A DNA stretch of 64,000 nt from NCBI GenBank assembly GCA_030692045.1, contig JAUYCX010000049.1, positions 106,643 through 170,642 of the forward strand. The letters run 5' to 3'. This document shows positions 1 through 50,097 of the stretch, piece by piece (positions within the stretch are counted from its first letter, which is position 1; every line of letters begins with the position of its first letter). Source of the DNA: Candidatus Omnitrophota bacterium. GTDB taxonomy: Bacteria > Omnitrophota > Gorgyraeia > JAUYCX01. The translations under genes were made by a program, and so were the position numbers. The notes beneath the pieces are model-generated. The model was given only the letters and a program-made list of their open reading frames with translations. It searched no databases and had not been told where the DNA came from.

Positions 1-18
1 TTTATTGTTTTTCTGCCA

Positions 19-1104
19 GTGATAATTTTGGATAAAACCAAAAGAAAAAAATCGTCAAATTTTTACAATATCCTAATAATTGAATTATGGGGCATCGGAG
101 ATTTGGTAATGATGAGCCCTATTTTAAAATCACTGAAATCGGGTTTTCCACAAGCTAGGATTACTTTACTTTCAAAGAATTTCGGAAAAGATTTATTAGG
201 TAATTGCGAATATGTCGACAAGTTTGTTGAATTTGATTTCCCCTGGACTCGTTTCAAAGGAAAATATAGATTATGGGATTGGGATTGGAAATCTCTAATT
301 AGAATAATTAAAAAACTAAAAAAAGAAAAATTTGATTTGGTGTTGGATGCGCGCGGAGATATCAGGAATAATTTATTATCTTTTTTAGTCGGAACAGAGA
401 AAAGAGTCGGCTATGGTTGGAGAGGCGCAGGTTATTTTTTAACAGATATAGGAAGTCCTGATTTTAAGCTTCAGCACAGATCAAAGGCATGGATTAATTT
501 GTTATTTCATTTAGGCATAAAAGAAATTAGCGATAAGCCGTTTATATCCATTGAAAGAAAGGCAGCCGATGGTGCAACAGACTTCCTAAGAAATCAGGGT
601 ATAAGAGATGGCGAGCTCGTAATAGGCATTCATCCCGGAGCAGGAGTAAAAACAAGATGCTGGCCTCTTGATAGATTTGCAAAGGTTGCAGAGTATATCA
701 GAGACAATTACCATGCAAAGATACTTGTTTTTGTTGAGCCAGGGGGTTACGCAAATGATATCCCTGTAAAAGGAGAAATTCTGAAGGTTAAGCTGGTTTT
801 AAGGGAATTGATAACTTTGATCAGTAAATTAGACCTGTTAATTTGTAATGATTCCGGGGTTATGCATATTGCAAGCGCTGTCGATACTCAAACTATAGCA
901 ATATTTGGCCCCGGAGATATAACTAAGATAGGGCCTATTGGAGACAAGTGCAAAGTAGTTATGAAGCAAAATGTTTCTTGCCGCCCTTGTTTTGATAATT
1001 GTAAATTTGATAGGCCTTTTTGTTTAGATGCGATAAAAGTCGTGGAAGTTATTGAGGCAGTCGATAGTGTTGTAGGAAAAGATAACGTGAGATTATCTGT
1101 TTAA
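19..1104 (+). CDS. Glycosyltransferase family 9 (LPS heptosyltransferase-like)
   Basis: 361-aa ORF. The N-terminal block IIELWGIGDLVMMSPILKSLK and the C-terminal block LICNDSGVMHIASAV..IAIFGP match the two signature regions of RfaF/RfaC-type GT9 enzymes. GTG start at 19; the frame stays open back to position 1, so the true start may lie upstream of the window. Confidence 0.8.
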   Translation: MIILDKTKRKKSSNFYNILIIELWGIGDLVMMSPILKSLKSGFPQARITLLSKNFGKDLLGNCEYVDKFVEFDFPWTRFKGKYRLWDWDWKSLIRIIKKLKKEKFDLVLDARGDIRNNLLSFLVGTEKRVGYGWRGAGYFLTDIGSPDFKLQHRSKAWINLLFHLGIKEISDKPFISIERKAADGATDFLRNQGIRDGELVIGIHPGAGVKTRCWPLDRFAKVAEYIRDNYHAKILVFVEPGGYANDIPVKGEILKVKLVLRELITLISKLDLLICNDSGVMHIASAVDTQTIAIFGPGDITKIGPIGDKCKVVMKQNVSCRPCFDNCKFDRPFCLDAIKVVEVIEAVDSVVGKDNVRLSV

Positions 1105-1139
1105 TTAGTTGGCTGTAGGCCGTTAAAAGGATTTTAAAA

Positions 1140-2678
1140 TTGAAAGTAGTTCTTATAAGCACAGATGAAAGTCCGGTAGCCATGGGTGTTAAGGCCCTGT
1201 CGTCAAACTTGATTAAGCATGGCTTTAAGACTGCAATAGTGATTATGTCCAGTTGGAGAAAGGACTTTGGAAATTTTTGTTGGGAAAACTTGGAGGAAGT
1301 CTGTAAAGATGTTAAATTAATAGGAATTTCTTGCATGACCCACGGAGTCTTAAAAGCCATTGAGGTAAAAAATAGGCTTCAAAGAAAAACAAAAGCCCAT
1401 TTTATAATCGGAGGGATTCACGCCACCTTGTCTGCGGAGAGCCTTTTGGATAATTTTGAATTAATTTGTTTAGGGGAGGGCGAAGACGTAGTGGTTGAAT
1501 TAGCCAAGCGCCTTAGCAGCAACGAACCTTTTTATGATATTCCCGGGTTGTGGGCGAAATTTGATGGGAAAATCTTTAAAAATCAATGCCAGCCATTAAG
1601 TAAAGATTTAAACGATTATCCTTTTCCTGACTATGATTTAAGCCATCAATTTATTTTGGAATCAGATAGGCTTGTGCCGATGGAGGGCTCGCATATTATT
1701 TGTGATTATTTTGAAGTTATGGGTGCTCGAGGGTGCCCCCATAACTGTGCATTTTGCTCAAACTATAAGATTAAACAGGATTTTCCGTGGAGAAAGATTG
1801 TAAGGCAATATTCCATTGATTATTTTATCAACCATTTAAAAGAAATTTGCAGGGTTTATCCGCAGGTGAGGAGTTTTTGGCTGGAAGACGATACTTTTTT
1901 TGCCAAGGAATATAATCATATTCAAGAATTTGCTCAGAGATATAAGAAAGAAATTAATAAACCTTTCTGTATTCTTATTTCTCCCTGGACGTATGATGAA
2001 GAAAAGGTAAAGCTTCTCATTGAAGCAGGCATGGATAGGATAATTTTTGGCATACAAAGCGGTAGTGAAAATACAAATTACAATATTTATAGTCGAAGAA
2101 TATCCAATAAAAAGATTTTAGAAATAACCCATTCACTTAATAAATTTAAAGGCATGCTGCCTTATTATGATTTTATCGGAATGAATCCTTTTGAAACAAG
2201 AGATGATTTAATAAGCACTATCCAGCTTGTCAAGAAGTTTCCCGCGCCGTTTTTCATATTCAGTAATAATTTAGCTTTTTATCCCGGCACTAAAATTCGC
2301 GAACTCGCTGTGAAAGCGGATTTAGATATGAGTAGGAGAGATAGGCATACAGACGCAAAACACGGTTATTCAATCTTAAAAAATGAAAAAATTGAGCATA
2401 AACTTTTCCATCTTTTATTTTTAATGATGGGAGGTAAGGCCAATAACTTTAAAATTGGGCTTATACCCAGATTTCTTATTTCTGACTATGCAATTAAATT
2501 TTATTGCTTTCTTGATGAAAAGTTAAGTTGTTTAGTGAATAAAATTATTTCATTATTTAGTACAGCTTTAATGTATACTGATTGGAAAGCGTTTTTAAGA
2601 AAACATCTTAGACGTAAGCAGATCGCTATGCTTAAGTCAATTTATTATAAAGTTTTTTTGGAAAGGGTTGATAAATGA
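1140..2678 (+). CDS. B12-binding-domain radical SAM protein (paralogue 1)
   Basis: 512-aa ORF with a TTG start. N-terminal cobalamin-binding-type Rossmann region (IIGGIHATL, CLGEGEDVVVEL), LNDYPFPDYDL linker, and 4Fe-4S motif GARGCPHNCAFCSN (CxxxCxxC). Confidence 0.85.
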   Translation: MKVVLISTDESPVAMGVKALSSNLIKHGFKTAIVIMSSWRKDFGNFCWENLEEVCKDVKLIGISCMTHGVLKAIEVKNRLQRKTKAHFIIGGIHATLSAESLLDNFELICLGEGEDVVVELAKRLSSNEPFYDIPGLWAKFDGKIFKNQCQPLSKDLNDYPFPDYDLSHQFILESDRLVPMEGSHIICDYFEVMGARGCPHNCAFCSNYKIKQDFPWRKIVRQYSIDYFINHLKEICRVYPQVRSFWLEDDTFFAKEYNHIQEFAQRYKKEINKPFCILISPWTYDEEKVKLLIEAGMDRIIFGIQSGSENTNYNIYSRRISNKKILEITHSLNKFKGMLPYYDFIGMNPFETRDDLISTIQLVKKFPAPFFIFSNNLAFYPGTKIRELAVKADLDMSRRDRHTDAKHGYSILKNEKIEHKLFHLLFLMMGGKANNFKIGLIPRFLISDYAIKFYCFLDEKLSCLVNKIISLFSTALMYTDWKAFLRKHLRRKQIAMLKSIYYKVFLERVDK

Positions 2679-4189
2679 AAGTTTTATTTTTCCACAGAAA
2701 TGCTGAATGGATCGGGATAGAATATCTTTCCAGCATTCTAAAGAAAGCTGGCCATGAAACTGAATTAATATTTGATCCCGGCGCCGGAGATGTGGAGTAT
2801 AAATTCAGATTTATTGAGAAAATTTTTGACGTCACAGAAAAGATGATTAAAATGGCCAAGGCATACAAGCCGGACCTGATTGCCTTTTCATGTTTAACTA
2901 ATTTATATCCATGGGTAAATAAAATGTCCCGCTTGATAAAAGAGGTTATGGATGTGCCTATTATCGTAGGGGGGCTTCATCCCACGCTCCTTCCCGAATA
3001 CGTGATAAAAAACCCTTACATTGATATGATATGCATTGGCGAAGGAGAAGAGGCGCTTTTGGAATTGGTGGAAAGCATGCAGAGCGGTTGTATAAATTAT
3101 TCCACAAAAAATATCTGGTTCAAAAGGAATGGAGAGGTTATAAGAAATCCCGTAAGGCCGCTTATCCAAAATTTAGATTCTTTGCCTTTCCCGGATAAAT
3201 CTCTTTTCAGGAAATACGGTTGTTTTTCTGAAAGGATTTATGTTATGACTACACGGGGTTGCCCCTATCAATGCTCATATTGTTACAATTCTTATTACAA
3301 AAAATTATTAAATTTCCCCGGTTTTTCGTATTTGCGACGTCGCAGCGTTAGAAATGTTATAGATGAACTCAAATTTTTTAAATCTCAATATCCTATTAGG
3401 GAAGTATTTTTTTGCGATGATATATTTACCATAGACGATAAGTGGATTAAAAATTTTTGTATTATTTATAAAAAAGAAATAAATCTACCTTTTAAAGCCT
3501 TTGTTCATCCAAAAACCGTTAAAAGAGAGATTATGAAACTTTTAAAAGATGCAGGGTGTATTTATGTAGATATCGGCATAGAATCCGGCAGCGAGGAAGT
3601 AAGAAGAAAGATATTAAAAAGGCATATGAGCAATCAGGATATTATCAATGCCGCCAAAATATTAAAAGAAGTTGGGATTAAATTTTGCACTCTAAACATG
3701 GTAGGGCTTCCTACCGAGACAGCACAACAGATGCGAGAGACTTATGAGTTGAATAAGATTATAAAACCAGACGGTGCCATTGTTTCAATTTTTTATCCGT
3801 ATCCCAAGACAGAACTTGCGGATTTTTGTTTAGAAAACAAACTAATTGCCCCAGAAGAATATGAAAAAATTTGCAATGGAGAAGGCGGCGGGTATAAGGA
3901 CAGTTGCATTATTATCAAAAATACAGATTTAAAAGAAGCTAAAAGACAGCTAATTTTAATTCCTTTTTTGACCAGAACACCTGCTTTTCTTCATCCCATA
4001 ATTAAAGCTTTGCCAATTAATAATTTTACGAGAATTCTTTCAATACCTTTTCTTTCTATACCGAGAAATAATTATATCCGCACAAAAGAATCTTTGACTA
4101 TGTTTATGAAATCCAATTTTTTGTATTTTTTTAGCAAAAAATTTCCTTTTAACATTTCTGATAAGGAACAATCTTGCGCCACAAAATAA
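2675..4189 (+). CDS. B12-binding-domain radical SAM protein (paralogue 2)
   Basis: 504 aa; the ATG overlaps the upstream stop (ATGA). Blocks IVGGLHPTL and CIGEGEEALLEL, linker LDSLPFPDKSLF, cluster motif TTRGCPYQCSYCYN. Confidence 0.88.
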   Translation: MKVLFFHRNAEWIGIEYLSSILKKAGHETELIFDPGAGDVEYKFRFIEKIFDVTEKMIKMAKAYKPDLIAFSCLTNLYPWVNKMSRLIKEVMDVPIIVGGLHPTLLPEYVIKNPYIDMICIGEGEEALLELVESMQSGCINYSTKNIWFKRNGEVIRNPVRPLIQNLDSLPFPDKSLFRKYGCFSERIYVMTTRGCPYQCSYCYNSYYKKLLNFPGFSYLRRRSVRNVIDELKFFKSQYPIREVFFCDDIFTIDDKWIKNFCIIYKKEINLPFKAFVHPKTVKREIMKLLKDAGCIYVDIGIESGSEEVRRKILKRHMSNQDIINAAKILKEVGIKFCTLNMVGLPTETAQQMRETYELNKIIKPDGAIVSIFYPYPKTELADFCLENKLIAPEEYEKICNGEGGGYKDSCIIIKNTDLKEAKRQLILIPFLTRTPAFLHPIIKALPINNFTRILSIPFLSIPRNNYIRTKESLTMFMKSNFLYFFSKKFPFNISDKEQSCATK

Positions 4190-4207
4190 AGAGGAAGAAG
4201 TATACCT

Positions 4208-4969
4208 ATGAAATTATCTATTATTATGCCGGTTTATAATGAGATTGAAAGTATCGAGCATATACTAAGAAGAGTTTCGGAAGTAAAGTATGACAAGGAA
4301 ATTATAATAGTTGATGATGGCTCTAAGGATGGAACGCGCGAGTTCTTAAAAAATAACAAAGCTGATTTTGATGGCGTAAAGGTTTTCTACCACGATGTAA
4401 ATTCAGGCAAGACTGCGGCTATCCGCACAGCGCTTAAGTATATTACAGGCGATATTGTTATTATCCAAGACGCAGATTTAGAATATAATCCAACTGACTA
4501 TAAGCAATTAATTGAACCCATAATTTCTGGTGAATTTGAGGTTGTTTACGGCTCAAGATTTTTAAATTTAGATAAACGTTTTGTTATTTGGCATTGGTTC
4601 CTTAATAAATTTTTAGGCAGGCATTATGAAGTTATTTATTTATCGCATTTCTTTGGGATACTGTTTTTAAATCTGTTAGCGTTTTTGCTTTATGGCGTGA
4701 AGATAACAGACATTGCCACCGGCTACAAGGTGTTTAAATCCGAGATAATAAAGGAAATATGGCTTGATACTAACCGTTTTGAATTTTGTTATGAAATAAC
4801 CGCAAAAATAGCCAAAAGAAATATTAGGATAAAAGAGGTGCCCATAAAATACCATCCCCGTTCAATTCTTAAGGGAAAGAAGATTACATGGAAAGATGGT
4901 ATCAGGGCTGCGCTGACACTTATAAAATATAAATTTAAAAACATTAAAAATGAAAGCCATACTTATTAA
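4208..4969 (+). CDS. GT2 glycosyltransferase, DPM1/GtrB/ArnC-like (probable polyprenyl-phosphate sugar synthase)
   Basis: 253 aa. The series LSIIMPVYNE .. IIIVDDGSKDGT .. IIQDADLEYNP .. YGSRF is the GT-A fold series typical of the DPM1-like clade. A hydrophobic stretch sits mid-protein and an SD-like GAGGAAG lies upstream. Confidence 0.75.
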   Translation: MKLSIIMPVYNEIESIEHILRRVSEVKYDKEIIIVDDGSKDGTREFLKNNKADFDGVKVFYHDVNSGKTAAIRTALKYITGDIVIIQDADLEYNPTDYKQLIEPIISGEFEVVYGSRFLNLDKRFVIWHWFLNKFLGRHYEVIYLSHFFGILFLNLLAFLLYGVKITDIATGYKVFKSEIIKEIWLDTNRFEFCYEITAKIAKRNIRIKEVPIKYHPRSILKGKKITWKDGIRAALTLIKYKFKNIKNESHTY

Positions 4970-6377
4970 TCCGTATCCCTATTATGCAAGAGGAGTGGAG
5001 GGGATTGTTTATCCTCCCTTAGGGCTTATCTATTTAGCTTCAGTTGCTAAGAATCGTAATTTAGGCGATATGAGAGTATTAGATGCCAATATTATGAAAT
5101 TGGAGAATAAAGGAGTGATTGCCCAGATATTGGATTACAACCCAGATATAATCGGTATTTCCAGTAATATCGTAACACACAGATCTGCATTAGAATTGGC
5201 AAAATTAATAAGGCTAAATGGAATGAAACAACTTTTATTAGTAGGCGGTCCGTACCCAGTTTTATTTCCAGACAAGTATTTAGAATATTGCGATATCATA
5301 GTAAACGGAGAAGGCGAAGAAACCTTTTGCGATATCCTCGAAGCGTGCAGATATAAAAAGGAGATTTTTTCGCTCAAGGGTATATTATATAAGAAGGACA
5401 ATTCTATTTTCCACAATAAAAATAGAGAATTCATGGATAATCTCGACGATATTCCGTTTCCAGACTACACATTACTTAAGCCCTCAATTGACTATTACAG
5501 CAAACGCGCAAGGATTATTAAGAATATAATGGCGCCGGTAATGACTTCAAGAGGCTGCCCTTACCAGTGCACCTACTGTAATAAAAGCGTATTTGGCTCG
5601 ACATTTAGATGCCGCACTCCAGAAAACATTTTAATGGAGATAGAATGGTTGCATAAAAATTTTAAGGTTGATCAGATTGATATATTAGACGATAATTTTA
5701 ATCTTATTCCAGAAAGAGCAGAAAAGCTTTTGGATAAGATAATCGATACGGATTTAAATATAGCCATAAGCTGCCATAATGGATTGCGCGCTGATAAAAT
5801 TTCAGATAGCTTTGCAGAAAAACTCAAGAAAAGCGGTGTATTCAAAGTAGGCTTAGGTATAGAAACTGCGGATTTTAAATTGATGCAGACCATAAAGAAA
5901 AATTTAGATTTGAATAAAGTTAAAGATGCGATAACCGCATTGCGAAAACAACGGATTACCGTACACGGGTATTTTATTTTTGGCTTGCCAGGTGATACAC
6001 CTTCCAGTATGAAGCGTACTATAGAATTTGCCAAAGATGTTAATCCTCATTTCTGTAACTTTGCTACTTGTATTCCGTTTCCAGGGACAGAGGTGTACAA
6101 TATCGTAAGAAAAGAAGGGACTTTCTTGGAAGATGTGGATAATGGCGTTTCTTCAGGATTCTTCGATGGGAAGGTTTTTTTTGAGATAAATGGGACAAAA
6201 GCTAAAGATGTATCTTACTATTGCAAAAAGGCTTATAAGGATTTTTATTTTAATGCCGAGAAAATCTTAGATATTGCTTTTACAATTAAGAATTTTAGAG
6301 AACTAAAATGGGTGCTTTCAACATCTTTGTCACTGGTAAAAAATATGCTGTTTAGCTTAGGCAAAAAGCAGTCATGA
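4950..6377 (+). CDS. B12-binding-domain radical SAM protein (paralogue 3)
   Basis: 475 aa with an MKAILINPYP start. Blocks LVGGPYPVL and VNGEGEETFCDI, linker LDDIPFPDYTLL, cluster motif TSRGCPYQCTYCNK. Overlaps the upstream GT2 by 20 nt. Confidence 0.88.
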   Translation: MKAILINPYPYYARGVEGIVYPPLGLIYLASVAKNRNLGDMRVLDANIMKLENKGVIAQILDYNPDIIGISSNIVTHRSALELAKLIRLNGMKQLLLVGGPYPVLFPDKYLEYCDIIVNGEGEETFCDILEACRYKKEIFSLKGILYKKDNSIFHNKNREFMDNLDDIPFPDYTLLKPSIDYYSKRARIIKNIMAPVMTSRGCPYQCTYCNKSVFGSTFRCRTPENILMEIEWLHKNFKVDQIDILDDNFNLIPERAEKLLDKIIDTDLNIAISCHNGLRADKISDSFAEKLKKSGVFKVGLGIETADFKLMQTIKKNLDLNKVKDAITALRKQRITVHGYFIFGLPGDTPSSMKRTIEFAKDVNPHFCNFATCIPFPGTEVYNIVRKEGTFLEDVDNGVSSGFFDGKVFFEINGTKAKDVSYYCKKAYKDFYFNAEKILDIAFTIKNFRELKWVLSTSLSLVKNMLFSLGKKQS

Positions 6378-7825
6378 AGATTAAAAAAGCTTTTCTAATT
6401 TATCCTCCTACAGGTCTATATATGAGAGATGATAGGTGCCAGGCGCCTGTAAAAGGGATGGCAGCTCAACCCATTCGCACTCCCTTAGATTTGGCATATA
6501 TCGCATCTACTTTGGAGAATGTTGGTGTAGAGTGTAAAATAAAAGACTATCCATCTGAGAAGCAAGGTTGGCCAAACTTCGAAGAAGATTTAAAAAAGTT
6601 TAAACCAGATGTCCTTGTAATAAGCGTAACTACTCCAACTCTTGTCGCTGATTTAACTGCTGCTAGCTTAGCTAAAAGATTTAAAAATGATATCCTGGTT
6701 ATATCTAAAGGTGCGCATTATCTCGTAGAGGATGAAGAGGTGCTTAAAAAGTTTCAGGATTTGGATATCATAATTAGAGGAGAATCTGAATTTACTGTTG
6801 CCGAAATCGTCTCCTCAGACAATCTTGAGAATGTTCTAGGAATTACTTTTAGAAAAAATGGGCTTATTAAAAGAACCCCTAATAGGCCTTTGCTGGAGAA
6901 TTTGGACAGTTTACCTTTTCCTGCCCGGCACCTTTTGAATAATGAATTATACTTAACTCCCGATACAAAAGAGCCGATAACTCTCATTTATACCGGACGG
7001 GGATGTTTTCACCAGTGTGTTTTTTGCGCAGTTCCTTTTGTAGCGGGTCACAAAGTAAAACTTCGCTCACCCCAGATTATAGTTTCAGAGATTGAAGAAT
7101 GTATCAAGAAGTATAATATTAGAAACTTTTTCTTCAGAGCAGATACATTTACTTGGGATGAAAAGTGGGTTATTGAGATATGTAAGCTAATTATTGATAA
7201 GGATATACAGATACGTTGGGGAACTAACAGCAGGGTTGATACTATAAATGAGAACAGACTGCATTGGATGAAAAAGGCAGGATGTTGGGTTATCGGATTT
7301 GGGGTTGAAAGCGGTAATCAGGAATCTTTAGACCTGATGAAAAAGAAAACCAAGGTTAAAGATGCTTTCAGGGCAATATCGCTTTGCAAGAGATATGGAA
7401 TAAAAACATACGCTTTATTTGTTATAGGATTTCCTTGGGAGAAACGCTCAGATATAAAAGATACAATTAGGTTGACTAAAGCATTAAATCCCTCTTTTAT
7501 TGATATAAATATTGCCTATCCTTTACCCGGTACAGAATTATTCAGATTAGCAAAAAAAGAGAATCTCTTTAACGAGAAAGATCTCCATGGCTATGATTAC
7601 GCCAAGCCGCTTATAAGAACCAAATATTTAACTACAAAGGAACTGATAAATCTGAGACGCTGGGCATTATTAAGTTTTTATTTAAGGCCAAGCTATATCG
7701 CAAGGACACTTTTATCTATAAGGTCGCCTAAAATTTTGTTTAGTTATATAACATCAGGTATACAGCTTATTTACAAAACTTTCAGCAGCGAATTACACGT
7801 TGAGGAATTCAGAGAGGAGATGTGA
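6374..7825 (+). CDS. B12-binding-domain radical SAM protein (paralogue 4)
   Basis: 483 aa with an ATGA overlap. Blocks ISKGAHYLV and IRGESEFTVAEI, linker LDSLPFPARHLL, cluster motif TGRGCFHQCVFCAV. Confidence 0.85.
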   Translation: MKIKKAFLIYPPTGLYMRDDRCQAPVKGMAAQPIRTPLDLAYIASTLENVGVECKIKDYPSEKQGWPNFEEDLKKFKPDVLVISVTTPTLVADLTAASLAKRFKNDILVISKGAHYLVEDEEVLKKFQDLDIIIRGESEFTVAEIVSSDNLENVLGITFRKNGLIKRTPNRPLLENLDSLPFPARHLLNNELYLTPDTKEPITLIYTGRGCFHQCVFCAVPFVAGHKVKLRSPQIIVSEIEECIKKYNIRNFFFRADTFTWDEKWVIEICKLIIDKDIQIRWGTNSRVDTINENRLHWMKKAGCWVIGFGVESGNQESLDLMKKKTKVKDAFRAISLCKRYGIKTYALFVIGFPWEKRSDIKDTIRLTKALNPSFIDINIAYPLPGTELFRLAKKENLFNEKDLHGYDYAKPLIRTKYLTTKELINLRRWALLSFYLRPSYIARTLLSIRSPKILFSYITSGIQLIYKTFSSELHVEEFREEM

Positions 7826-7835
7826 GCCGCTAAAT

Positions 7836-8891
7836 ATGGAAAAAGATAAAAACAGAGCATTATTAAAAAATTCTAACAAAAAGAGAAATATAGTCGAAGC
7901 ATTAGTTATTTTCTTTTTATTTTTAAGCGCGGCTTTTTCAATTTCCTATTGGGCAATTGCTAAATACGATGTTTATAGTGACTATACTGCTTGCGGTGAT
8001 GCCCAACAATACATAAAAATGAGTAGGCATGATTATTCTAACGTACAGCAAAGATACAGAAATAGGCCATTAATGCCATTTATAGTTTCTTTGCTTAATG
8101 ACCATTTGAAAATTGATAACTTTTTAAATAAATATTATGAAAATGTAGAAAATAAGATTATCCAGTTAAATTTTGGTATTGTGAATATATTAGCCATTGC
8201 ACTAACGGCATTGTTGTTTTTTTATTACTGCATTTATTTAAATTTCTCTAAATGGGAAAGTTTAGTTGGTTCATTTCTCTTTTTAACTTCTTTTTTTGTG
8301 GTGACATATTTTACAATTCCTATGGTTGACTCCTTATCTGCATTTTTCATAATGGCTGGATTTTATGCGGTTTTGCGTAGTTCATTATTAGGTTTATCCT
8401 TATCATTTTTATTGGGCGTGTTTACGAAAGAGACAACCTTTGTTATTTTGCCTTTGATATTATTAGAGGAAAGAAGATTGTTTACAAAAAAACTTTTAGT
8501 CTGCTTACCGGGCATTATTTCTTATATTATTTTTGTTATCTTCTTTCAGGACAAAGCCGATGCTACTTTTTATATCTTCAAAGATGTTGTTAAAATATTA
8601 AAAGGGAATTTTATTCAAGTAAGTATGCGTGAATTTAGTTTCTACACCCTAATAGAAAATATACAGATATTTATGTTTCTTTGGATTTTATTTATATATG
8701 CGCTATTTAAGTGTAAGAAACCGGTTTTCTTAAAACGGGTAGTTTGGTTGCTTATTATTCCTGTTTTCACACCATTACTGCCAGGTGCAGTAGTGGGTAG
8801 AGCGGTTTTTTACCTTTTTCCGATTGTTATCCCATTTGCCTTATTGGCACTTAGAGATATTTTAGTCTCAAAAGTAAAAGAAAATTATTAA
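7836..8891 (+). CDS. Polytopic integral membrane protein (possible GT-C-type transferase or polymerase)
   Basis: About 350 aa with roughly 9-10 hydrophobic helices by eye. An acidic GDAQQY segment follows the first helix. I prefer the ATG at 7836 to the TTG at 7800, which overlaps the upstream gene. No soluble catalytic motif was recognised. Confidence 0.4.
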   Translation: MEKDKNRALLKNSNKKRNIVEALVIFFLFLSAAFSISYWAIAKYDVYSDYTACGDAQQYIKMSRHDYSNVQQRYRNRPLMPFIVSLLNDHLKIDNFLNKYYENVENKIIQLNFGIVNILAIALTALLFFYYCIYLNFSKWESLVGSFLFLTSFFVVTYFTIPMVDSLSAFFIMAGFYAVLRSSLLGLSLSFLLGVFTKETTFVILPLILLEERRLFTKKLLVCLPGIISYIIFVIFFQDKADATFYIFKDVVKILKGNFIQVSMREFSFYTLIENIQIFMFLWILFIYALFKCKKPVFLKRVVWLLIIPVFTPLLPGAVVGRAVFYLFPIVIPFALLALRDILVSKVKENY

Positions 8892-8905
8892 TTTCGCCTT
8901 CAAAA

Positions 8906-10390
8906 ATGGATAAGCATAATATTCATAATTTAAATAAAAAAATAAATTATCTGGGAATTACGCTATTAGGATTATTTTCTTTGGGGTATTGTATATTTGA
9001 AAATTTATTTGCTGAGATAAATATACAACTTAATTTTCTGGATTTTCCCATATTCATAGGAGAGATATTATTTTTTTTCTGCTTAATCTTATTACTTATA
9101 AAATGGGCCATTAATAAAGAAAAAAATGTTTTTTTTAATTATGTCATATTTATTTACTTTTTATTTGTTCTGGTTAAGGCTTATGGAGGATATTTGGTGT
9201 GGGGGCCATTAGCCTTAAGGCACTCGGCTTTATTTTATTACCCTTTATTTGCTGTTTTTGGCTATTCATTTTTTAGGCTTGATTATTTCAGAGATAAAAG
9301 AAAATTAGCTTTAGTTTTAATTTTATTATTTATTTCCATTATTTTTACTATTAACTCGAGTTATAAGTTTATCTGTTTTATCTTGGCTTTTGTGCTTATA
9401 AAAACTTTCCCCAAAGGTTTATTAAAGTATCTGTTTTTATTTCTTTTTGTTGCTTTTGTTCCTTATAAAGATTTCTTGTCAGGTAAGAGAACAATGTGGA
9501 TAAGCAATATTGTATCCGGGATATTTTTGATAGTTACTTTAAATTTTATTTTTAAAATAAAAAGGTCTCATCGTTTGGTTTTGTATGGAATTCTGTGTCT
9601 GTTCTTTAGTATTGGTTTAATTAAGTTTGCAGATAAAAATGCCTTAAGCACTATTATAAATTTGAAAGAGAATTTCAGTCGCTTTAAGGTCTTGAATGAT
9701 ATGATTTTGGCACAAAAGGAAAATTTTATAATGAGTAACTTAGGAAAGCCTCGGCTTTATAACAAAGGCATAGAAACAGAGCCTCATATATATACAGAGC
9801 TTTCTAAAGAAAGTCCGGCTAAGCCGATATTGGAACAATCTTTACAAAAGCAACAGGATGAAACCCATGAATTTCTTCAACCTACCCTTCTTCAACCCAC
9901 CACTCCTATTGAACAAAAAACTAAAAATCTCGGAAAATTAGATACAAGTTATCTCAATAATTCTTTTCGAATATTTATCTGGCAGGATTTATTGGAGGCG
10001 CTTATTACTGAAAAACCAATCTTTGGATTTGATTTTGGCAAGCCCTTTCGCTCTAAAAGCATTGAAATTTTAAATATAGCTCACGGCGAATGGACAAGGG
10101 ATGGTTGGATAGCTGTTCACAATTCTTATTTAGAGATGATATATAGGGCCGGAATAATAGGCATTTTATTGGTAGTAACTACTTTTGTAATTTTGTTTAA
10201 AATGATTATGATTTCAATAAAATTAAAATTAATAAATGGGGTTTTACTTTGTGCAGTGCTTATAAATTGGATAATATCAGCCAGTTTTATGCCAGTTTTG
10301 GAATTACCATACAAGGCAATTCCATTTTGGATTTGTTTTGGGATGACTTTGTGTTATTTAAAGAATTATAAGAAAATCGCTTCGCGATAA
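8906..10390 (+). CDS. O-antigen ligase/polymerase family membrane protein (Wzy_C-type)
   Basis: 494 aa with many TM helices and a large hydrophilic loop. After the loop comes HGEWTRDGWIAVHNSYLEMIYRAGIIGILL, which resembles the conserved H..N.yLe...e.GiiG block of the Wzy_C domain. Confidence 0.65.
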   Translation: MDKHNIHNLNKKINYLGITLLGLFSLGYCIFENLFAEINIQLNFLDFPIFIGEILFFFCLILLLIKWAINKEKNVFFNYVIFIYFLFVLVKAYGGYLVWGPLALRHSALFYYPLFAVFGYSFFRLDYFRDKRKLALVLILLFISIIFTINSSYKFICFILAFVLIKTFPKGLLKYLFLFLFVAFVPYKDFLSGKRTMWISNIVSGIFLIVTLNFIFKIKRSHRLVLYGILCLFFSIGLIKFADKNALSTIINLKENFSRFKVLNDMILAQKENFIMSNLGKPRLYNKGIETEPHIYTELSKESPAKPILEQSLQKQQDETHEFLQPTLLQPTTPIEQKTKNLGKLDTSYLNNSFRIFIWQDLLEALITEKPIFGFDFGKPFRSKSIEILNIAHGEWTRDGWIAVHNSYLEMIYRAGIIGILLVVTTFVILFKMIMISIKLKLINGVLLCAVLINWIISASFMPVLELPYKAIPFWICFGMTLCYLKNYKKIASR

Positions 10391-10434
10391 GAAGCTATCT
10401 TTGGCGTAGACTACCAATAGGACATAGTACTATT

Positions 10435-11766
10435 ATGAATTTCTCAAAAGGATTTATAAAATATGCAAAAAATACAGGTTATTTATTAGTCGGAAAGATT
10501 ATTAAACTATTTGTTACATTTACTGTTGGTGTATGTCTTATTAGGTATTTAGGGCCTACACAATATGGGCTTCTTAGCTATGCGATAAGTTTTACGCTTT
10601 TATTCAATGTATTATCCGACTTAGGATTAGATTACATTATTGTTAGAGATTTAGTAAAAAGCAAAGGGGAAAATGAGAGAAATGAGATGTTGATTTCGGC
10701 TTTTTTGTTGAAATTATTAGGGGCCGTGCTCGTTGTTGTGATTATACTGATAGCAATTAATGTTTTATCCTTTAGTTCATATACAAAGGTACTTATTTTT
10801 ATCATATCCTTAGGGATGTTGTTTGAGCCGTTCAATGTTATAGACCTTTATTTTCAATCAAAGGTGCTTGCTAAGTTTATAGTTTATCCTCAGATATTTT
10901 CTCTGGCTATAGCATCTTCTCTGAATTTGTTATTTATTTATCTCAAACTACCCTTGATATATCTTGCCTGTATTGTAATTCTTGAGACCATAATCACGGG
11001 TATCGGTTTATATATTTCCTTTAAACTTAATAAACAAAAGATTTTTGTATTAAAATGGAGAGTTATCTTAGCGAAAATGAGGCAATTATTAAGAGACTCT
11101 TGGCCGTTAATTATATCTTGTATTGCGATTTCAATATATATGCATATAGACCAGGTAATGATTAAGGCGATGTTAAATACTGCCGAAGTTGGGTATTATG
11201 CTGTCGCGGTAAAAATATGTGAAATTTTTTATACTATCCCGATGATCTTGACTGCTTCTTTATTCCCGGCAATTATAAATGCAAAATTAAAAGATAAAGA
11301 GCTATATTATGACAGATTGCAGAAATTATTTAGGTTTCTTTTTTGGACTGCTGTAGCCATATCGATATCGATAACTATAGCCGCCAAGCCAATGATAAAT
11401 ATCTTATACGGCCATGAATTTTCTGCTGCTGCAAAAGTATTAAGCATATACATATGGGCAAGCGTATTTATTTTTCTGGGCGTAGCAAGCGGAAAATGGG
11501 TTATTAATGAAAATTTACAGGTATATATTATGTTTTATACGATAATCGGAGCAGTTGTAAACGTAATTTTAAATTTACTATTAATACCTGCGATGGGTAT
11601 AAATGGTGCGGCAATTGCCGCCGTTATTTCTCAACTTATTTCTGCTGTGTTCTGTAATTTGCTGAACAAAAAAACAAGAATAATTTTTTTACTCCAAATG
11701 AAATCGTTTAATGCAATAACAGCATGGAGACTATGTAGGAAATATATTTTTGAATCAAGCACATAA
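10435..11766 (+). CDS. wzx: Wzx-type polysaccharide flippase (MOP/PST family)
   Basis: 443 aa with about 12 TM helices. It shows the typical PST-family N-terminus (KNTGYLLVGKIIKLFVTF..RYLGP..YGLLSYA) and a C-terminal half with GINGAAIAAVISQ. Confidence 0.75.
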   Translation: MNFSKGFIKYAKNTGYLLVGKIIKLFVTFTVGVCLIRYLGPTQYGLLSYAISFTLLFNVLSDLGLDYIIVRDLVKSKGENERNEMLISAFLLKLLGAVLVVVIILIAINVLSFSSYTKVLIFIISLGMLFEPFNVIDLYFQSKVLAKFIVYPQIFSLAIASSLNLLFIYLKLPLIYLACIVILETIITGIGLYISFKLNKQKIFVLKWRVILAKMRQLLRDSWPLIISCIAISIYMHIDQVMIKAMLNTAEVGYYAVAVKICEIFYTIPMILTASLFPAIINAKLKDKELYYDRLQKLFRFLFWTAVAISISITIAAKPMINILYGHEFSAAAKVLSIYIWASVFIFLGVASGKWVINENLQVYIMFYTIIGAVVNVILNLLLIPAMGINGAAIAAVISQLISAVFCNLLNKKTRIIFLLQMKSFNAITAWRLCRKYIFESST

Positions 11767-11786
11767 CATGTGCGCATAGTTTATTT

Positions 11787-12974
11787 ATGAAAAACAGGAT
11801 TAATAAATTAATAAATATAATAACTGTCGTTGTTCTATTAGCCAGTGGGGTTGTTTTATTAGAAATGATGGCCAGACTTGCTTGGCATTATAAATATAAC
11901 AAATGGCTGGAAAAAGAGTTGCATGGATTTGAGCGCATAGATTATAGAAGGGGAATTATCATCCCTAAAGAGAATACCATAGAAACAGTAAAGAGCTACA
12001 AAGAAGACTTAATGAAATTTGGGAAGACTCTTGGTTTGAAATATTTTTATGAAACAGCCCCATATCTCACTTCACAAGATGATTCAACAGTACTCTTTAG
12101 TAACAATAAATATGGTTTTAAGGGGCCAGAAATTTCTATGCCGAAGCCGGATTCGGTTTTTAGAATTTTAACTATTGGGGATTCATGTACATGGGGGCCG
12201 CCGAGTGATTATTATTCTTATCCGCGAATTATGGAAAGGGAATTGAGTCGTTTAATTGATAATAAATTTAGAATAGAAGTAGTCAATGCTGGAGTTTACG
12301 GATATAATTTTGAACGCGTTATAAAAAGAATAGATGAGTTTTTAGCTATCGACCCAGATTTAATTATAATATATCTTGGGTGGAATAGAACTATTTTTAG
12401 GGCGGATATTCAAAAAAATATGTTTCTGTATCGTAATCTTGCATTATATAAAATTTTTTACCATCTTGTAGTAAATCGAAAAGATACAGGCTTAAATGAA
12501 GATTATAGTAAAACTACCTTTTATAATACTCGAGCAATTGAAAATAACAAGTTTCAAGCCTATAATTTTAACTATGATATCAATGATCTTGATGTAATTA
12601 TAAGAAAAATAAAGGATAAGAATAAATCCATAAAGGTTATGCTAATTACTTTAGCGGGATTATTTGATTTGAGAGTAAATCCTGATCAGCGTAGTTTGGA
12701 CATCGGATATCCAATAGCATCTACCAATAATTTATACATATTGTCGTTATTAACCGCAAAGTTCAATAGCGAGTTGAGAAATTACGCTCGAAGTGAAGGG
12801 TTGCCTATAATCGATTTCGAACTATATGCACTTGAGAATTTTGTACCAAGAAGCAGATATTTTTTTGATTCTGTTCATCCCACGATTGAAGGTTATCTAA
12901 AGATGGGCAGATTTTTCGCAAATGAGATTATAAGAATTCTTAATTTGCAAAAGGTAAAAGAAGGGCATTATTAG
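11787..12974 (+). CDS. Membrane-anchored SGNH/GDSL hydrolase-type esterase
   Basis: 395 aa with an N-terminal hydrophobic anchor. Block I is ILTIGDSCTWG, a GxND-like block is NAGVYGYN, and block V is FDSVHPT (DxxH). Confidence 0.7.
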   Translation: MKNRINKLINIITVVVLLASGVVLLEMMARLAWHYKYNKWLEKELHGFERIDYRRGIIIPKENTIETVKSYKEDLMKFGKTLGLKYFYETAPYLTSQDDSTVLFSNNKYGFKGPEISMPKPDSVFRILTIGDSCTWGPPSDYYSYPRIMERELSRLIDNKFRIEVVNAGVYGYNFERVIKRIDEFLAIDPDLIIIYLGWNRTIFRADIQKNMFLYRNLALYKIFYHLVVNRKDTGLNEDYSKTTFYNTRAIENNKFQAYNFNYDINDLDVIIRKIKDKNKSIKVMLITLAGLFDLRVNPDQRSLDIGYPIASTNNLYILSLLTAKFNSELRNYARSEGLPIIDFELYALENFVPRSRYFFDSVHPTIEGYLKMGRFFANEIIRILNLQKVKEGHY

Positions 12975-12980
12975 AGAATT

Positions 12981-14876
12981 ATGTGCGGAATATGCGGAAT
13001 TTATAATTTTAATAAAAAAGCTCAGGTTAATCCTGAGCATTTACGGCAGATGTGTGAAGTGATGCGCCACCGTGGGCCGGATGACCAAGGTTTTTATGTA
13101 AACCAAAACCTTGGATTAGGGCATCTACGCCTAAGTATTATTGATATTGTCGGCGGACATCAGCCGATGTTTAACGAAAACAATTCTATTTTAATTGTTC
13201 ATAATGGCGAAATTTATAATTTTTTAGAACTAAGAGAAGAGCTTCTTTCGCACGGGCACATTTTTAAAACTAATTCAGACACCGAGGTCATTATTCATGC
13301 CTACGAAGAATATGGAAAAGAATGTGTGAATAAATTCAACGGGATGTGGGCTTTTGTTATCTGGGATAAAAATGAAGAAACTTTATTTTGTTCGCGCGAT
13401 AGGTTTGGAATAAAGCCTTTCTATTATTACTATGATGGTAATAAATTTATATTCGCCTCTGAAATAAAAACATTTTTCGTGTTAGTTGATATAGAAAAAC
13501 TTGAGAATTTTAAAAAAACTTATGAATATATTGTGTATGGAAACCAGGACAGCTTTGAAGAAACAATGTTTAGGGGTATATATCAGCTAAAAGCTGGCCA
13601 CAACTTAATTTTAAAAAATAAGCGAATTAATATATATCGTTACTGGGATTTAAAAGATAGCCCGAATAATTATGACTTAGAATTTAAGAACAAGGAAAAA
13701 CTGTATAGCCAGTTTAGGGATTTATTATTTAGTTCGGTATTGTTACATAGGCATAGCGATGTTGATGTTTGGACCTTATTAAGCGGGGGGCTGGATTCTT
13801 CAGCATTGGTCTGCGTTCAGAAACAGATGAAAGAGCAGGGCCTTATTAATTCCCCAATAAAAACCATATCCATTGTTCACGAGCAAAAAGAAATTAACGA
13901 ATATGAATATGTAAAAGAGGTGCTTGATAGTGATAATATAATAAATTATGCAATTAATTGCGATGAAGGCGATGTTGTTAGTTCGCTTGAAAAAGTTGTT
14001 TATATCCAAGACGAGCCCTTTTCTCAAATGATTACTTTTAATCATTATTTTTTAATGAAGAAACTTTCAGAAAATAGAATAAAAGTTGTTTTAAGCGGTC
14101 AAGGCGCGGATGAATGTTTAGCCGGATACCTTCCGTTATTATCCAGTTACTATTTTGCTGATTTATTAAGATCATTTAAGATTTTAAAATTGCTAGAAGA
14201 AATGAAACATTGTATAAAAAGAAATAACCCGGTTTTTTACCCCATGCCTTTACTTTTGATGCAGATGATAAAAAGCATAGTTTCAAGAAGGCTGGCAAGT
14301 TTTATTAAAGCAAAATTTGTTGAGAAAAGTTTAGGTTTTATTTCTAAAGAATTCAATAAATTTGAAAGAAATATCTCACTGTTTATTCAAACCAAAAAAA
14401 ACTTTAGTATTCTTAATAACAATTTGTATCGAATGTTAATGAACGATTCTTTGCCGCGCATTTTACGCCTGGAAGACCGAAATTCAATGTCTTTTTCTAT
14501 CGAAGAGAGGGTTCCTTTTTTAGATTATCGCCTTGTGGAATTTTTCTTTTCGCTTTCAAATTCTCAAAAAATAGATAATGGTGTATCAAAGAAAATTCTT
14601 AGAGAAAGTTTAAAAGGTATTTTACCTGAAAAAATACGCACGAGAATAACCAAATTGGGTTTTAATGCGCCGGAAAAAGAATGGTTAAGATCAGAAAAAT
14701 TATTTTCATATTTACAGGATATTAATTATAAGCAAATTCTTTCAACGGGGCTTATAGATAGAAATTTATTTGAAACTGAATTTAAAAAATTTCGAGAAGG
14801 GACTTCGCCTTACAGACCGGTTATTTGGCGCGCTGTTAATTATATTATTTGGAAAAAAGTTTATGGCATTGCTTAA
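12981..14876 (+). CDS. Asparagine synthase-family glutamine amidotransferase (AsnB-like, copy 1)
   Basis: 631 aa. MCGICGI supplies the N-terminal nucleophile Cys2 of class II glutaminases. LLSGGLDSSALV is the PP-loop of the synthetase domain. Confidence 0.9.
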   Translation: MCGICGIYNFNKKAQVNPEHLRQMCEVMRHRGPDDQGFYVNQNLGLGHLRLSIIDIVGGHQPMFNENNSILIVHNGEIYNFLELREELLSHGHIFKTNSDTEVIIHAYEEYGKECVNKFNGMWAFVIWDKNEETLFCSRDRFGIKPFYYYYDGNKFIFASEIKTFFVLVDIEKLENFKKTYEYIVYGNQDSFEETMFRGIYQLKAGHNLILKNKRINIYRYWDLKDSPNNYDLEFKNKEKLYSQFRDLLFSSVLLHRHSDVDVWTLLSGGLDSSALVCVQKQMKEQGLINSPIKTISIVHEQKEINEYEYVKEVLDSDNIINYAINCDEGDVVSSLEKVVYIQDEPFSQMITFNHYFLMKKLSENRIKVVLSGQGADECLAGYLPLLSSYYFADLLRSFKILKLLEEMKHCIKRNNPVFYPMPLLLMQMIKSIVSRRLASFIKAKFVEKSLGFISKEFNKFERNISLFIQTKKNFSILNNNLYRMLMNDSLPRILRLEDRNSMSFSIEERVPFLDYRLVEFFFSLSNSQKIDNGVSKKILRESLKGILPEKIRTRITKLGFNAPEKEWLRSEKLFSYLQDINYKQILSTGLIDRNLFETEFKKFREGTSPYRPVIWRAVNYIIWKKVYGIA

Positions 14877-16102: not shown

Positions 16103-17065
16103 ATGAAAACGAATTCTAAAAAAACATTAATTTCAATTGTAGCTACCTTTTTCAACGAAGAAGGGAATCTAGGGCCCTTATATTCTAAGGTTAAAGAAGT
16201 TTTTGAGAATATTGACTATGAATTCGAATTAATCTTAATCGATGATGCTAGCGAAGATGATTCGCTTGAAATTGCCAGGAAATTGCGCCTAAAAGATCCT
16301 CGGGTAAAAATTTTGTCGCTTACCCGGCGTTTCGGACATCAGGCATCGCTATCTGCCGGCATAGATTATGCTGAGGGTGATGCAGTGATTTTAATGGATT
16401 CTGATTTACAGCATCCGCCCGAAGTCATTCCAGAACTGCTTAAGAAATGGCGCGAGGGTTATGAAAATGTCTATACTATTCGTAAGGTTACAAAGAACAA
16501 TCCCTTCTTTAAAAAGTTTTGTTCCGTTATTTTTTATCGAATTTTTCGCGCCTTAACAAAGATAGACCTGCCTATGAACAGCGCTGATTTTCGGCTGTTG
16601 GATAGAAAAGTAGTTTTGCAGCTTAGAAAAATCCAAGAAAGAAATCGTTTTTTAAGAGGAATCATTGCTTGGACAGGGTTTAGGTCGGTTGGCATAGATT
16701 ATCAAGATGCACCGCGGCATAGCGGAGAGATAAAGTATGGCTTCAAAAAGAAGCTTTTTTTAGCCATAGATGCCGTTACTTCTTTTAGCATCAAGCCTCT
16801 TTATTTAGGAGTTGTTATTGGTTTTATTTTTGCGGTTTTGGGTTTTGTCTATTTTGTCTATGTACTATATATTTCAATTTTTACTGATACAGATATCCCT
16901 GGTTGGGCCTCCGTAGCTTCCTTATTATCTATATTAGGCGGCATTCAATTAATTGTTGTGGGATTAATCGGAATTTATATAGGTAAAATTTTTGAGGAGG
17001 TTAAACAGCGCCCGCTATACTTAATTCGCTATGCTAAAGGTTTTGACAAAAAAATACTTGAGTAA
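16103..17065 (+). CDS. GT2 polyprenyl-phosphate glycosyltransferase (GtrB/ArnC-like)
   Basis: 320 aa. The series ISIVATFFNEEGNL .. LILIDDASEDDS .. ILMDSDLQHPPE, plus two C-terminal TM helices (LYLGVVIGFIFAVLGFV, LLSILGGIQLIVVGLIGIYI), is the architecture of bactoprenol-phosphate sugar synthases. Confidence 0.8.
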   Translation: MKTNSKKTLISIVATFFNEEGNLGPLYSKVKEVFENIDYEFELILIDDASEDDSLEIARKLRLKDPRVKILSLTRRFGHQASLSAGIDYAEGDAVILMDSDLQHPPEVIPELLKKWREGYENVYTIRKVTKNNPFFKKFCSVIFYRIFRALTKIDLPMNSADFRLLDRKVVLQLRKIQERNRFLRGIIAWTGFRSVGIDYQDAPRHSGEIKYGFKKKLFLAIDAVTSFSIKPLYLGVVIGFIFAVLGFVYFVYVLYISIFTDTDIPGWASVASLLSILGGIQLIVVGLIGIYIGKIFEEVKQRPLYLIRYAKGFDKKILE

Positions 17066-17090
17066 TAATTTAGAAGTATTAGAAAAGGTT

Positions 17091-17166
17091 TGAGTGAGTA
17101 AAGGTAAGAGAGTAAATAATAAAAAACATTAGTTTCAATTGTGGCCGTTTTTCAATAGTGAGCCCT
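17091..17166 (+). repeat. Decayed copy of the RBS/5' end of the GtrB-like GT2 gene (source 16084-16178)
   Basis: TGAGTGAGTA .. AAAAAACATTAgTTTCAATTGTgGC .. TTTTTCAA .. GCCCT at 17091-17166 parallels TGAGTGAGTA .. AAAAAACATTAaTTTCAATTGTaGC .. TTTTTCAA .. GCCCT at 16084-16178. The downstream copy has an in-frame stop and indels. Confidence 0.6.
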
Positions 17167-17208
17167 AAAAAATAAGAAGTAAAATAACAATGTGGATAGT
17201 TGAATATT

Positions 17209-19657: not shown

Positions 19658-19729
19658 TGTTGATATTGTCGGTGTTGTATTCATTTTTTTCATAAGTTCG
19701 CCTGATAGTTGATTTATGGTTCGAATAAT

Positions 19730-33506: not shown

Positions 33507-33519
33507 AGGAGAATGAAAA

Positions 33520-34536: not shown

Positions 34537-34539
34537 GTA

Positions 34540-35937: not shown

Positions 35938-35942
35938 GAAAA

Positions 35943-50092: not shown

Positions 50093-50097
50093 AAAAT

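Follow-up and report, generated by a model that had tools for sequence, protein, structure and literature searches.

What are four cobalamin-type radical S-adenosylmethionine (rSAM) proteins doing around a single putative polyprenyl-phosphate sugar synthase? This question is raised by a stretch of 64 kb from contig JAUYCX010000049.1 of a Candidatus Omnitrophota bacterium (the window in the following text), which has a G+C content of about 33% and carries all of its sizeable open reading frames (ORFs) on the + strand. Near its start, the genes rS1, rS2, GT2, rS3, rS4 and Mem follow one another, where rS1 to rS4 encode B12-binding rSAM proteins, GT2 a small glycosyltransferase similar to DPM1, ArnC and GtrB, and Mem a polytopic membrane protein. 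An earlier note on this DNA had suggested that the four radical enzymes modify one lipid-linked sugar in succession. Here we propose, with our confidence evenly balanced, that an Arn/Gtr-like periplasmic glycosylation branch is encoded in which three of these enzymes, rS2 to rS4, tailor the lipid-linked sugar. The region as a whole is best explained as a composite stretch of an Omnitrophota-type lipopolysaccharide (LPS)/O-antigen locus, the DNA being derived from a groundwater metagenome.

Results

GT2 resembles polyprenyl-phosphate sugar synthases

The gene order given in the earlier note was confirmed by the ORFs and by Pfam scores, and the tight junctions it described (overlaps or distances of at most 18 nt) amount to -4, +18, -20, -4 and +10 nt from rS1 to Mem (Table 1). 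All four rSAM proteins exceed the Pfam gathering cut-offs for both Radical_SAM (PF04055, 29.5 bits) and B12-binding (PF02310, 32.1 bits), and all four contain a CxxxCxxC motif.

Sequence comparisons indicate that GT2 (253 amino acids, aa) is a probable polyprenyl-phosphate sugar synthase. The top NCBIfam models were AglJ (2e-34), PpgS, PgfS, PgaC/IcaA and ArnC, all below cut-off; no named-equivalog cut-off was reached, with AglJ scoring best at 119 bits (cut-off, 325). In the PDB, the seven best-matching sequences were the dolichyl-phosphate mannose synthase (DPMS) from Pyrococcus, three ArnC and three GtrB, and residues 1-225 could be aligned with Pyrococcus DPMS, which places QDADLEYNP over the DPMS motif DADLQHPP. 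By these matches, GT2 groups with the DPM1/ArnC/GtrB/AglJ/PpgS synthases, as the earlier note had supposed, and not with glycan-elongating GT2 enzymes. Its single hydrophobic stretch (residues 141-159) falls into the interface-helix region, and a C-terminal transmembrane (TM) anchor of the kind present in GtrB, ArnC and archaeal DPMS was not found in the protein. The anchorless GT2 resembles the short DPM1 type.

In a tree of GT2 proteins, those of the window and of locus L015 (loci from other contigs are designated by L numbers) belong to an rS4-linked clade, and Mem-linked GT2s without rS4 form a separate clade. As the rS4-adjacent GT2s thus form a clade of their own, GT2-(rS3)-rS4 moves as a cassette, and in this lineage it seems to have taken the place of the resident GT2.

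The rS4 clade is associated with two unrelated synthases

The best curated model for rS4 was HpnJ (TIGR03471; 238 bits versus a cut-off of 577.6), and its best PDB matches were AprD4 (6e-25) and MgmA. No hpn or shc genes are present among the annotated ORFs of the window. The neighborhoods of rS4 relatives were obtained from a metagenome scan that returned 80 loci, and counts were made over loci with a visible neighbor. In the group with at least 55% identity to rS4 (n=21), a DPM1/GtrB-like GT2 lies no more than two genes away from 18 relatives. In this group, GT2 lies directly upstream of rS4 in nine loci, rS3 is located between them in five, and five other loci combine a four-TM GtrB-like GT2 with a polytopic protein of about 650 aa encoded divergently downstream. 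For none of the five relatives with 49-54% identity was a synthase found within two genes. Below 49% identity (n=51), a gene for a UbiA-type protein is immediately adjacent in 23 cases, GT2 occurs within two genes in 11, and only six loci for which both sides are visible have neither GT2 nor UbiA within this distance.

The UbiA proteins score above the NCBIfam cut-off for decaprenyl-phosphate phosphoribosyltransferase (NF008977, 234 bits), with 267 bits for the protein of the window and 299 bits for that of L074. The two kinds of synthase use different donors, a nucleotide sugar in the case of GT2 and phosphoribosyl pyrophosphate (PRPP) in the case of UbiA, and their folds are unrelated; what they have in common is the class of product, a polyprenyl-phosphate (Pren-P)-monosaccharide. 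That one rSAM clade is found beside two unrelated synthases which share only their product class therefore argues for an action of this clade on the lipid-linked sugar, and this is the main argument of the present study.

The two-gene pair of a UbiA-type phosphoribosyltransferase and an rS4-like B12-binding rSAM was seen in L074 (positions 9117-11443) and in about 22 more metagenome loci. In L074 it sits among genes for PmbA/TldD, a type II secretion ATPase, PIN, Mfd and OEP, with no glycan cluster around it.

Mem is predicted to adopt a GT-C-like fold

An AlphaFold2 model of Mem, obtained with the family alignment as input, reached a pLDDT of 84.8 and a pTM of 0.86. When the model was compared to the PDB with Foldseek, the 23 top matches all had the GT-C fold (STT3, ArnT, ALG9, ALG12, PMT, PglB, Emb and the GT-C-like PIG-U subunit). 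WaaL and SEDS-type proteins are absent from the 50 matches listed. The model makes Mem a candidate for a minimal GT-C-like glycosyltransferase. About nine hydrophobic/TM spans are present in the protein, close to the 9-10 helices of the earlier note. Almost all of the 45 relatives of Mem that were found are unannotated. In an alignment of 38 of them, R77, P81, G194 and E199 are invariant and D49 and D55 nearly so (at least 90%). The latter two residues are located just past TM1, on the side opposite to the Lys/Arg-rich (predicted cytoplasmic) N-terminus. In GT-C enzymes, the catalytic acid resides in the first extracytoplasmic loop after TM1. The weak acidic motif GDAQQY of the earlier note thus lies where GT-C enzymes have their catalytic Asp, and we infer a catalytic role for D49/D55.

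Also, a DPM1-like GT2 adjoins Mem or lies within a few genes of it in L002, L003, L005, L007, L008, L014, L015 and L016, and such Mem-GT2 loci usually carry a Wzy_C gene and a GT9 gene as well. Wzy_C-like orthologues follow Mem in L014 (49% identity) and L011, and in L002, L003 and L005 Wzy_C genes are located ahead of Mem. Taken together, GT2 and Mem likely form an architecture of synthase plus GT-C-like transferase.

The four rSAM proteins differ in their genomic partners

With pairwise identities of 23-31%, rS1 to rS4 represent old, distinct lineages in the tree. An origin by recent tandem duplication was rejected because of these low identities and because each protein has its own orthologues elsewhere. 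The earlier note had considered that rS1/rS2 and rS3/rS4 might each be sister lineages; rS1 and rS2 are sisters, at a distance of 31% identity, but rS3 and rS4 are not, their nearest paralogues in the window being rS6 and rS5, respectively. When compared to their best solved relatives, AprD4 and TokK, phmmer E-values of the rSAM proteins ranged from 1e-6 to 6e-25. Membership of rS1 to rS4 in the HpnJ, BchE, ladderane-associated, PhpK, MgmA or AprD4 families was discarded, as NCBIfam scores were far below cut-off.

The most divergent of the four is rS1, for which AprD4 is the best solved relative. Its family comprises about 65 clusters at a minimum of 43% identity, from Omnitrophota, Scalindua, Geobacter, Lentisphaerota and Latescibacterota. 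rS1 directly follows GT9 in the window, in L097 (Omnitrophota metagenome-assembled genome, MAG) and in L099 (Geobacter MAG), and it is found near GT9 genes in L098 (Scalindua rubra). Similarly, GT9 is adjacent to or near the rS1 orthologues of L014 and L015. Neither a DPM1-like GT2 nor Mem is present in L097, L098 or L099. Since rS1 accompanies GT9 where DPM1-like GT2 and Mem are absent, it is unlikely that all four enzymes act on one sugar, as had been suggested in the earlier note. Rather, rS1 probably belongs to the upstream GT9 module and modifies the sugar of that enzyme.

The three other rSAM proteins are linked to DPM1-like GT2s by conserved neighborhoods in other genomes, which bears out this part of the earlier note. 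rS2 has MgmA, TokK and AprD4 as PDB relatives and the ladderane-associated family as its top NCBIfam model (below cut-off). It is a member of a large family, abuts GT2 in the window and in L015, and is found in L100 in the order GT2 (46% identical), rS2 orthologue, rSAM, GDSL and PMT-type GT-C. For rS3, whose PDB relatives are TokK, MgmA and CysS, the only position found was between GT2 and rS4, with the order GT2-rS3-rS4 in L015, L023, L024 and L027; rS3 and rS4 are adjacent in L032 and L041 too, where the contigs end before the position of GT2.

Some further arrangements concern rS2-like proteins. In L015 (4104-6344), the rS2 orthologue and a class I SAM methyltransferase domain are joined in one protein of 746 aa, which suggests that an rSAM and a conventional methyltransferase share a substrate. 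In Scalindua japonica, an anammox planctomycete (L101, BAOS01000001.1, 1-16000), the order is rSAM-GT2-rSAM-rSAM-SPASM rSAM, two of these rSAMs being rS2-like, and a PMT GT-C gene is found three genes upstream of the first rSAM. In the Omnitrophica contig L100 (7299-16244) and in L101, the architecture is of the same kind, several B12-binding rSAMs and a SPASM rSAM flanking a small GT2, with PMT-type GT-C and GDSL genes nearby.

The block is composed of modules

In L015, the genes are arranged in the order GT9, rS6-like, rS1 (84%), rS2 (82%, methyltransferase-fused), GT2 (69%), rS3 (74%), rS4 (73%) and Mem (65%), so that this locus has an additional rSAM and a methyltransferase fusion when compared to the window. 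It was recovered through exact-protein look-ups, and a scan of genome contigs with the Mem alignment gave seven loci, none of which has the six-gene block. Partial arrangements are seen in L014 (GT9, an 88-aa ORF, GT2 with 44% identity, Mem with 68% and Wzy_C-like; upstream of GT9, at a distance of two genes, lies an rS1 orthologue) and in L016 (GT2 with 40%, Mem with 71% and an rS1 orthologue; 4 kb upstream there is also an rS2 orthologue). In both, the Mem orthologue adjoins a GT2 of a different clade, and rS3/rS4 are lacking. The modules encountered elsewhere are GT9-rS1, GT2-(rS3)-rS4 and GT2-Mem-Wzy_C-like, and downstream of the GT2-rS4 cassettes there is usually a gene for a class I methyltransferase with about 243 aa.

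A common upstream backbone is shared by L001 (1-6897), L097 (2600-10026) and L005 (224-5621). It consists, in this order, of genes for a polysaccharide deacetylase, an Acetyltransf_6/FemAB-like protein, a DegT aminotransferase, GT4, (two short-chain dehydrogenases/reductases, SDRs) and GT9, and a variable rSAM insert comes after it.

The surrounding glycan locus

Eight B12-binding rSAM genes, half of which are rS1 to rS4, and one SPASM rSAM gene occur in the co-directional window. The glycan locus also holds genes for GT9, GT4, GT2, WecG, an initiating phosphoglycosyl transferase, two Wzy_C proteins and Wzx, as well as for AsnB-type amidotransferases, SDR epimerases, methyltransferases and a carbamoyltransferase. 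The GT9 gene in front of rS1 is cut off at its 5' end by the start of the window (the complete gene in L001 encodes 390 aa), and NCBIfam models for heptosyltransferase II/III match its product below cut-off. Named relatives of Mem, rS1 and rS2 come mainly from Candidatus Omnitrophota MAGs. In positions 1-12000, a promoter scan remained at background and terminator-like sites were barely above shuffled expectation, those in gene orientation lying inside coding sequence.

Table 1. Genes at the start of the window and the matches on which their assignments are based.
Feature	Positions	Strand	Evidence and remarks
GT9 (heptosyltransferase-family) glycosyltransferase	19-1104	+	PF01075 1.6e-32; conserved rS1 partner
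rS1, B12-binding radical SAM	1140-2678	+	Radical_SAM 65.9 bits, B12-binding 37.9 bits; motif CPHNCAFC
rS2, B12-binding radical SAM	2675-4189	+	Radical_SAM 99.0 bits, B12-binding 72.6 bits
GT2, small soluble DPM1/ArnC/GtrB-like	4208-4969	+	PF00535 1.9e-33; IIQDADLEYNP
rS3, B12-binding radical SAM	4950-6377	+	Radical_SAM 82.7 bits, B12-binding 58.5 bits
rS4, B12-binding radical SAM, HpnJ-like clade	6374-7825	+	Radical_SAM 79.8 bits, B12-binding 43.7 bits
Mem, 351-aa polytopic protein	7836-8891	+	ATG start; upstream TTG at 7800 also open; GDAQQY
Wzy_C-like (O-antigen ligase/polymerase family) membrane protein	8906-10390	+	PF04932 2e-8, above cut-off
Wzx/MOP-superfamily flippase	10435-11766	+	Polysacc_synt 1.4e-31, MatE 1.4e-6, MurJ 9e-5

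The combination of a Pren-P-sugar synthase with an rSAM is encountered twice more further downstream. At 16103-18615, the gene for the B12-binding rSAM rS5 comes immediately after that of a full-length GtrB/ArnC/PgfS-type GT2 with two C-terminal TM helices (5ekp, 2e-79). With 35% identity, rS5 is the nearest paralogue of rS4, and HpnJ is the best curated model for rS5 (206 bits). A row at 32613-38812 consists of UbiA, an SDR epimerase-like protein, the B12-binding rSAM rS6, a PMT_2 GT-C protein of 622 aa and GT2, with the part from UbiA to PMT_2 spanning 32613-37811. At 46133-53729, rS7, rS8 and a SPASM-domain rSAM stand in a row and are followed by a polytopic protein of 624 aa and by a carbamoyltransferase. 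No Pfam or NCBIfam match was obtained for this polytopic protein (50041-51915, about 8 TM) or for another one at 19709-21001 (430 aa, about 6 TM), and both may be further GT-C-like transferases or polymerases. In addition, two asparagine-synthase-type (AsnB) amidotransferases are encoded within the glycan locus at 12981-14876 and 41687-43600, suggesting amidated uronic acids or similar substituents.

Discussion

A possible pathway

In the branch that we propose, GT2 would use a nucleotide sugar to load polyprenyl (undecaprenyl) phosphate with a sugar at the cytoplasmic face of the membrane, as DPM1, ArnC and GtrB do. At the same face, rS3, rS4 and probably rS2 would then alter unactivated carbons of the lipid-linked monosaccharide by radical chemistry, through C-methylation or through an oxygen-independent epimerization or deoxygenation. 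The tailored Pren-P-sugar would be flipped, possibly by the nearby MOP-family protein, which shows a weak MatE match and is a candidate flippase for either an O-unit or a lipid-linked monosaccharide. Finally, on the periplasmic side, Mem would pass the sugar on to the LPS core, lipid A or O-antigen, beside the Wzy_C-like ligase/polymerase. rS1 would remain outside this branch and serve the GT9 (heptosyltransferase-like) module. That rS2 to rS4 act on a lipid-linked sugar is, in our judgment, a little short of an even chance.

Regarding the type of reaction, C-methylation is the commonest activity of class B rSAMs, and AprD4, a near relative of rS4, is a diol dehydratase and not a methylase. 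Likewise, HpnJ, BchE and OxsB are class B members that are not methylases (PMC9204698), and HpnJ has been proposed to contract the ring of lipid-linked glucosamine (PMC9204698, PMC13459092). The multiple C-methylations that the earlier note gave as an example are thus a mere possibility here, neither of the two families nearest to rS4, HpnJ and AprD4, being one of methylases. For rS4 an HpnJ-type ring contraction was rejected on chemical grounds, because it would destroy the glycosyl-phosphate donor and leave a cyclitol phosphate unusable by GT-C enzymes; therefore methylation, epimerization or deoxygenation are favored.

Several observations weigh against this proposal. The six genes are not conserved as a unit, an outcome that the earlier note had named as refuting its idea, and recur completely in one contig, L015, only, and Mem is absent beside most GT2-rS4 cassettes, where large polytopic or PMT_2-like proteins are usually nearby. 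All four rSAM proteins score below every curated family cut-off. Many of the UbiA-rS4 loci share flanking genes and are not independent samples. Also, a scan of ten unannotated neighbors of rS4 relatives placed some distant relatives in housekeeping contexts (GTP cyclohydrolase I, MetK), so that the association is strong and not universal. With regard to Mem, the Foldseek matches have E-values from 2e-3 to 0.6 and query-normalized TM-scores of 0.36-0.58, the Pfam match to PMT is below cut-off (18.4 versus 22.7 bits, 1.8e-3), and Pfam scans of the 38 relatives gave weak matches to EpsG, a polymerase-type family, in 11 cases and to PMT in seven. Comparison of Mem by hhalign with the PMT_2 (E 0.19) and Wzy_C proteins of the window was not significant. 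Given these weak Pfam and hhalign results, the GT-C assignment of Mem rests on the predicted fold, and a polymerase-type role may apply. As for a flippase of the GtrA/ArnEF type, the window contains no small GtrA-like ORF and no unassigned gap larger than about 640 nt.

Other readings of the locus

An alternative that we consider unlikely is that the rSAM proteins act on soluble nucleotide sugars, or on the growing repeat unit linked to undecaprenyl pyrophosphate, and that GT2 and Mem merely deliver a modified or unrelated sugar. Sugar tailoring in O-antigen loci is established to occur mostly at the level of nucleotide sugars, in four genomes a pair of SDR epimerase/dehydratase genes and a Leloir-type GT9 come before rS1, and the substrates of GenK and AprD4, the characterized relatives that modify sugars, are soluble (PMC9204698). 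However, the rS4 clade pairs equally with UbiA, whose donor PRPP is no nucleotide sugar, the UbiA-rS4 pair of L074 has no other sugar genes around it, and rS3 and rS4, inserted with stop and start codons that overlap, separate the synthase from the GT-C-like gene. It is still less probable that there is no functional unit at all and that cassettes have been juxtaposed by chance in a hypervariable surface-glycan locus, with Mem being a Wzy/EpsG-like polymerase or another non-transferase. Such an explanation would account for the occurrence of rS1, rS2, the GT2-rS3-rS4 cassette and Mem apart from each other in other contigs, for the weak EpsG matches among relatives of Mem and for the reported hypervariability of Omnitrophota polysaccharide cassettes (bioRxiv 10.64898/2026.06.07.730766), but it leaves unexplained why Mem adjoins a DPM1-like GT2 in most loci, whatever the clade of that GT2, and why its best structural matches are uniformly GT-C, with WaaL and SEDS proteins missing from those listed. 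Also, the full order recurs in L015 with 65-84% protein identity, and Scalindua has a similar arrangement of a small GT2 among several B12-binding rSAMs with GT-C genes nearby.

Finally, the rSAM proteins might modify the polyprenyl chain (by methylation, cyclization or cross-linking) or build a stand-alone polyprenyl-phosphate glycolipid of the membrane and not a donor. Many of their B12-binding relatives do act on isoprenoid lipids, among them HpnP/HpnR, enzymes modifying glycerol dialkyl glycerol tetraethers and the ladderane-associated family (PMC13459092), the polyprenyl lipid is common to the products of GT2 and UbiA, and the UbiA-rS4 pairs in L074 have no GT-C gene nearby. We nevertheless regard this explanation as very improbable, as the cassette occurs together with GT-C-like genes in the window and in L015, L024, L025, L034, L039 and L100, carrier lipids are recycled so that changes in the carrier would not reach the product, and there are no isoprenoid-synthesis genes among the annotated ORFs of the window. 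Tailoring of the sugar by rS2 to rS4 at the level of the lipid-linked donor remains our preferred reading.

Implications

LPS, O-antigens and cell walls are decorated in the periplasm with sugars from donors such as undecaprenyl-phosphate glucose, undecaprenyl-phosphate 4-amino-4-deoxy-arabinose (Ara4N) and decaprenyl-phosphate arabinofuranose. To our knowledge, the diversification of such lipid-linked donors is limited to one deformylase and a few epimerases. As a tentative generalization, possible rather than probable, B12-type rSAMs might constitute an unrecognized auxiliary class of enzymes that tailor Pren-P-monosaccharides in the three-component glycosylation systems of anaerobes, with the rS4/HpnJ-like clade as its core, partnered interchangeably with GT2 or UbiA. 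Together with UbiA, this clade might provide an oxygen-independent route to epimerized or C-methylated pentofuranose donors, in place of DprE1/E2. If this is true, surface sugars that are C-methylated, deoxygenated or epimerized and lack a nucleotide-sugar route could be within reach of uncultured anaerobes, for example Omnitrophota, anammox Planctomycetota and relatives of Geobacter, the class B radical SAM proteins of a large orphan clade would receive a substrate class, and glycoengineers would gain new tailoring steps. As the rSAM clade recurs with two unrelated synthases, the idea lends itself to a direct test in E. coli.

Comparison with known systems

A Pren-P-sugar synthase together with a polytopic GT-C-type transferase in an LPS/O-antigen locus is likewise found in the three-component systems GtrA/GtrB/Gtr*, which glucosylates O-antigens, ArnC/ArnD/ArnEF/ArnT, which adds Ara4N to lipid A, and UbiA-type PPPRS/MATE/GT136, which transfers pentofuranoses (Kelly et al., 2024; PMC11127046). 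In the latter study, the lipid-linked donor is described as being tailored by the SDR epimerase ORF13 in the pentofuranose system of Citrobacter and by DprE1/E2, no further epimerase that acts in side-chain glycosylation of O-antigens is known to its authors, and the term "radical SAM" has no occurrence in it. The row around rS6 resembles this pentofuranose system, with a radical SAM enzyme added. Tailoring of a lipid-linked donor is also performed by the deformylase ArnD. In contrast to the three-component systems, the tailoring enzymes in the window would be cobalamin-type rSAMs. Furthermore, GtrB and ArnC have a C-terminal membrane anchor that is absent from GT2, Mem is small with its 351 aa and lacks a periplasmic domain, and no flippase gene of the GtrA/ArnEF type was found.

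The hopanoid branch HpnI/HpnK/HpnJ is like the proposed pathway in that a GT2 places a hexosamine on a lipid before a cobalamin-type rSAM, HpnJ, acts on the lipid-linked sugar. However, rS4 is far below the HpnJ cut-off, and neither a squalene-hopene cyclase nor other hpn genes occur in the window. The class B methylases GenK, GenD1, MoeK5 and Fom3 as well as AprD4 have the same N-terminal B12-type Rossmann domain and the same CxxxCxxC radical SAM barrel as the window proteins and act on unactivated sugar carbons, the substrate of MoeK5 being a lipid-phosphoglycerate-linked sugar. In contrast, these enzymes belong to antibiotic pathways, have mostly soluble substrates and show low identity to the rSAMs of the window. 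A literature search gave no report that ties radical SAM enzymes to polyprenyl-phosphate sugars, UbiA phosphoribosyltransferases or Omnitrophota LPS. In summary, the framework of synthase plus GT-C is known, and what is new with respect to the literature searched are the embedded cobalamin-type rSAMs, the occurrence of one rSAM clade with two unrelated synthases and the very small GT-C-like protein.

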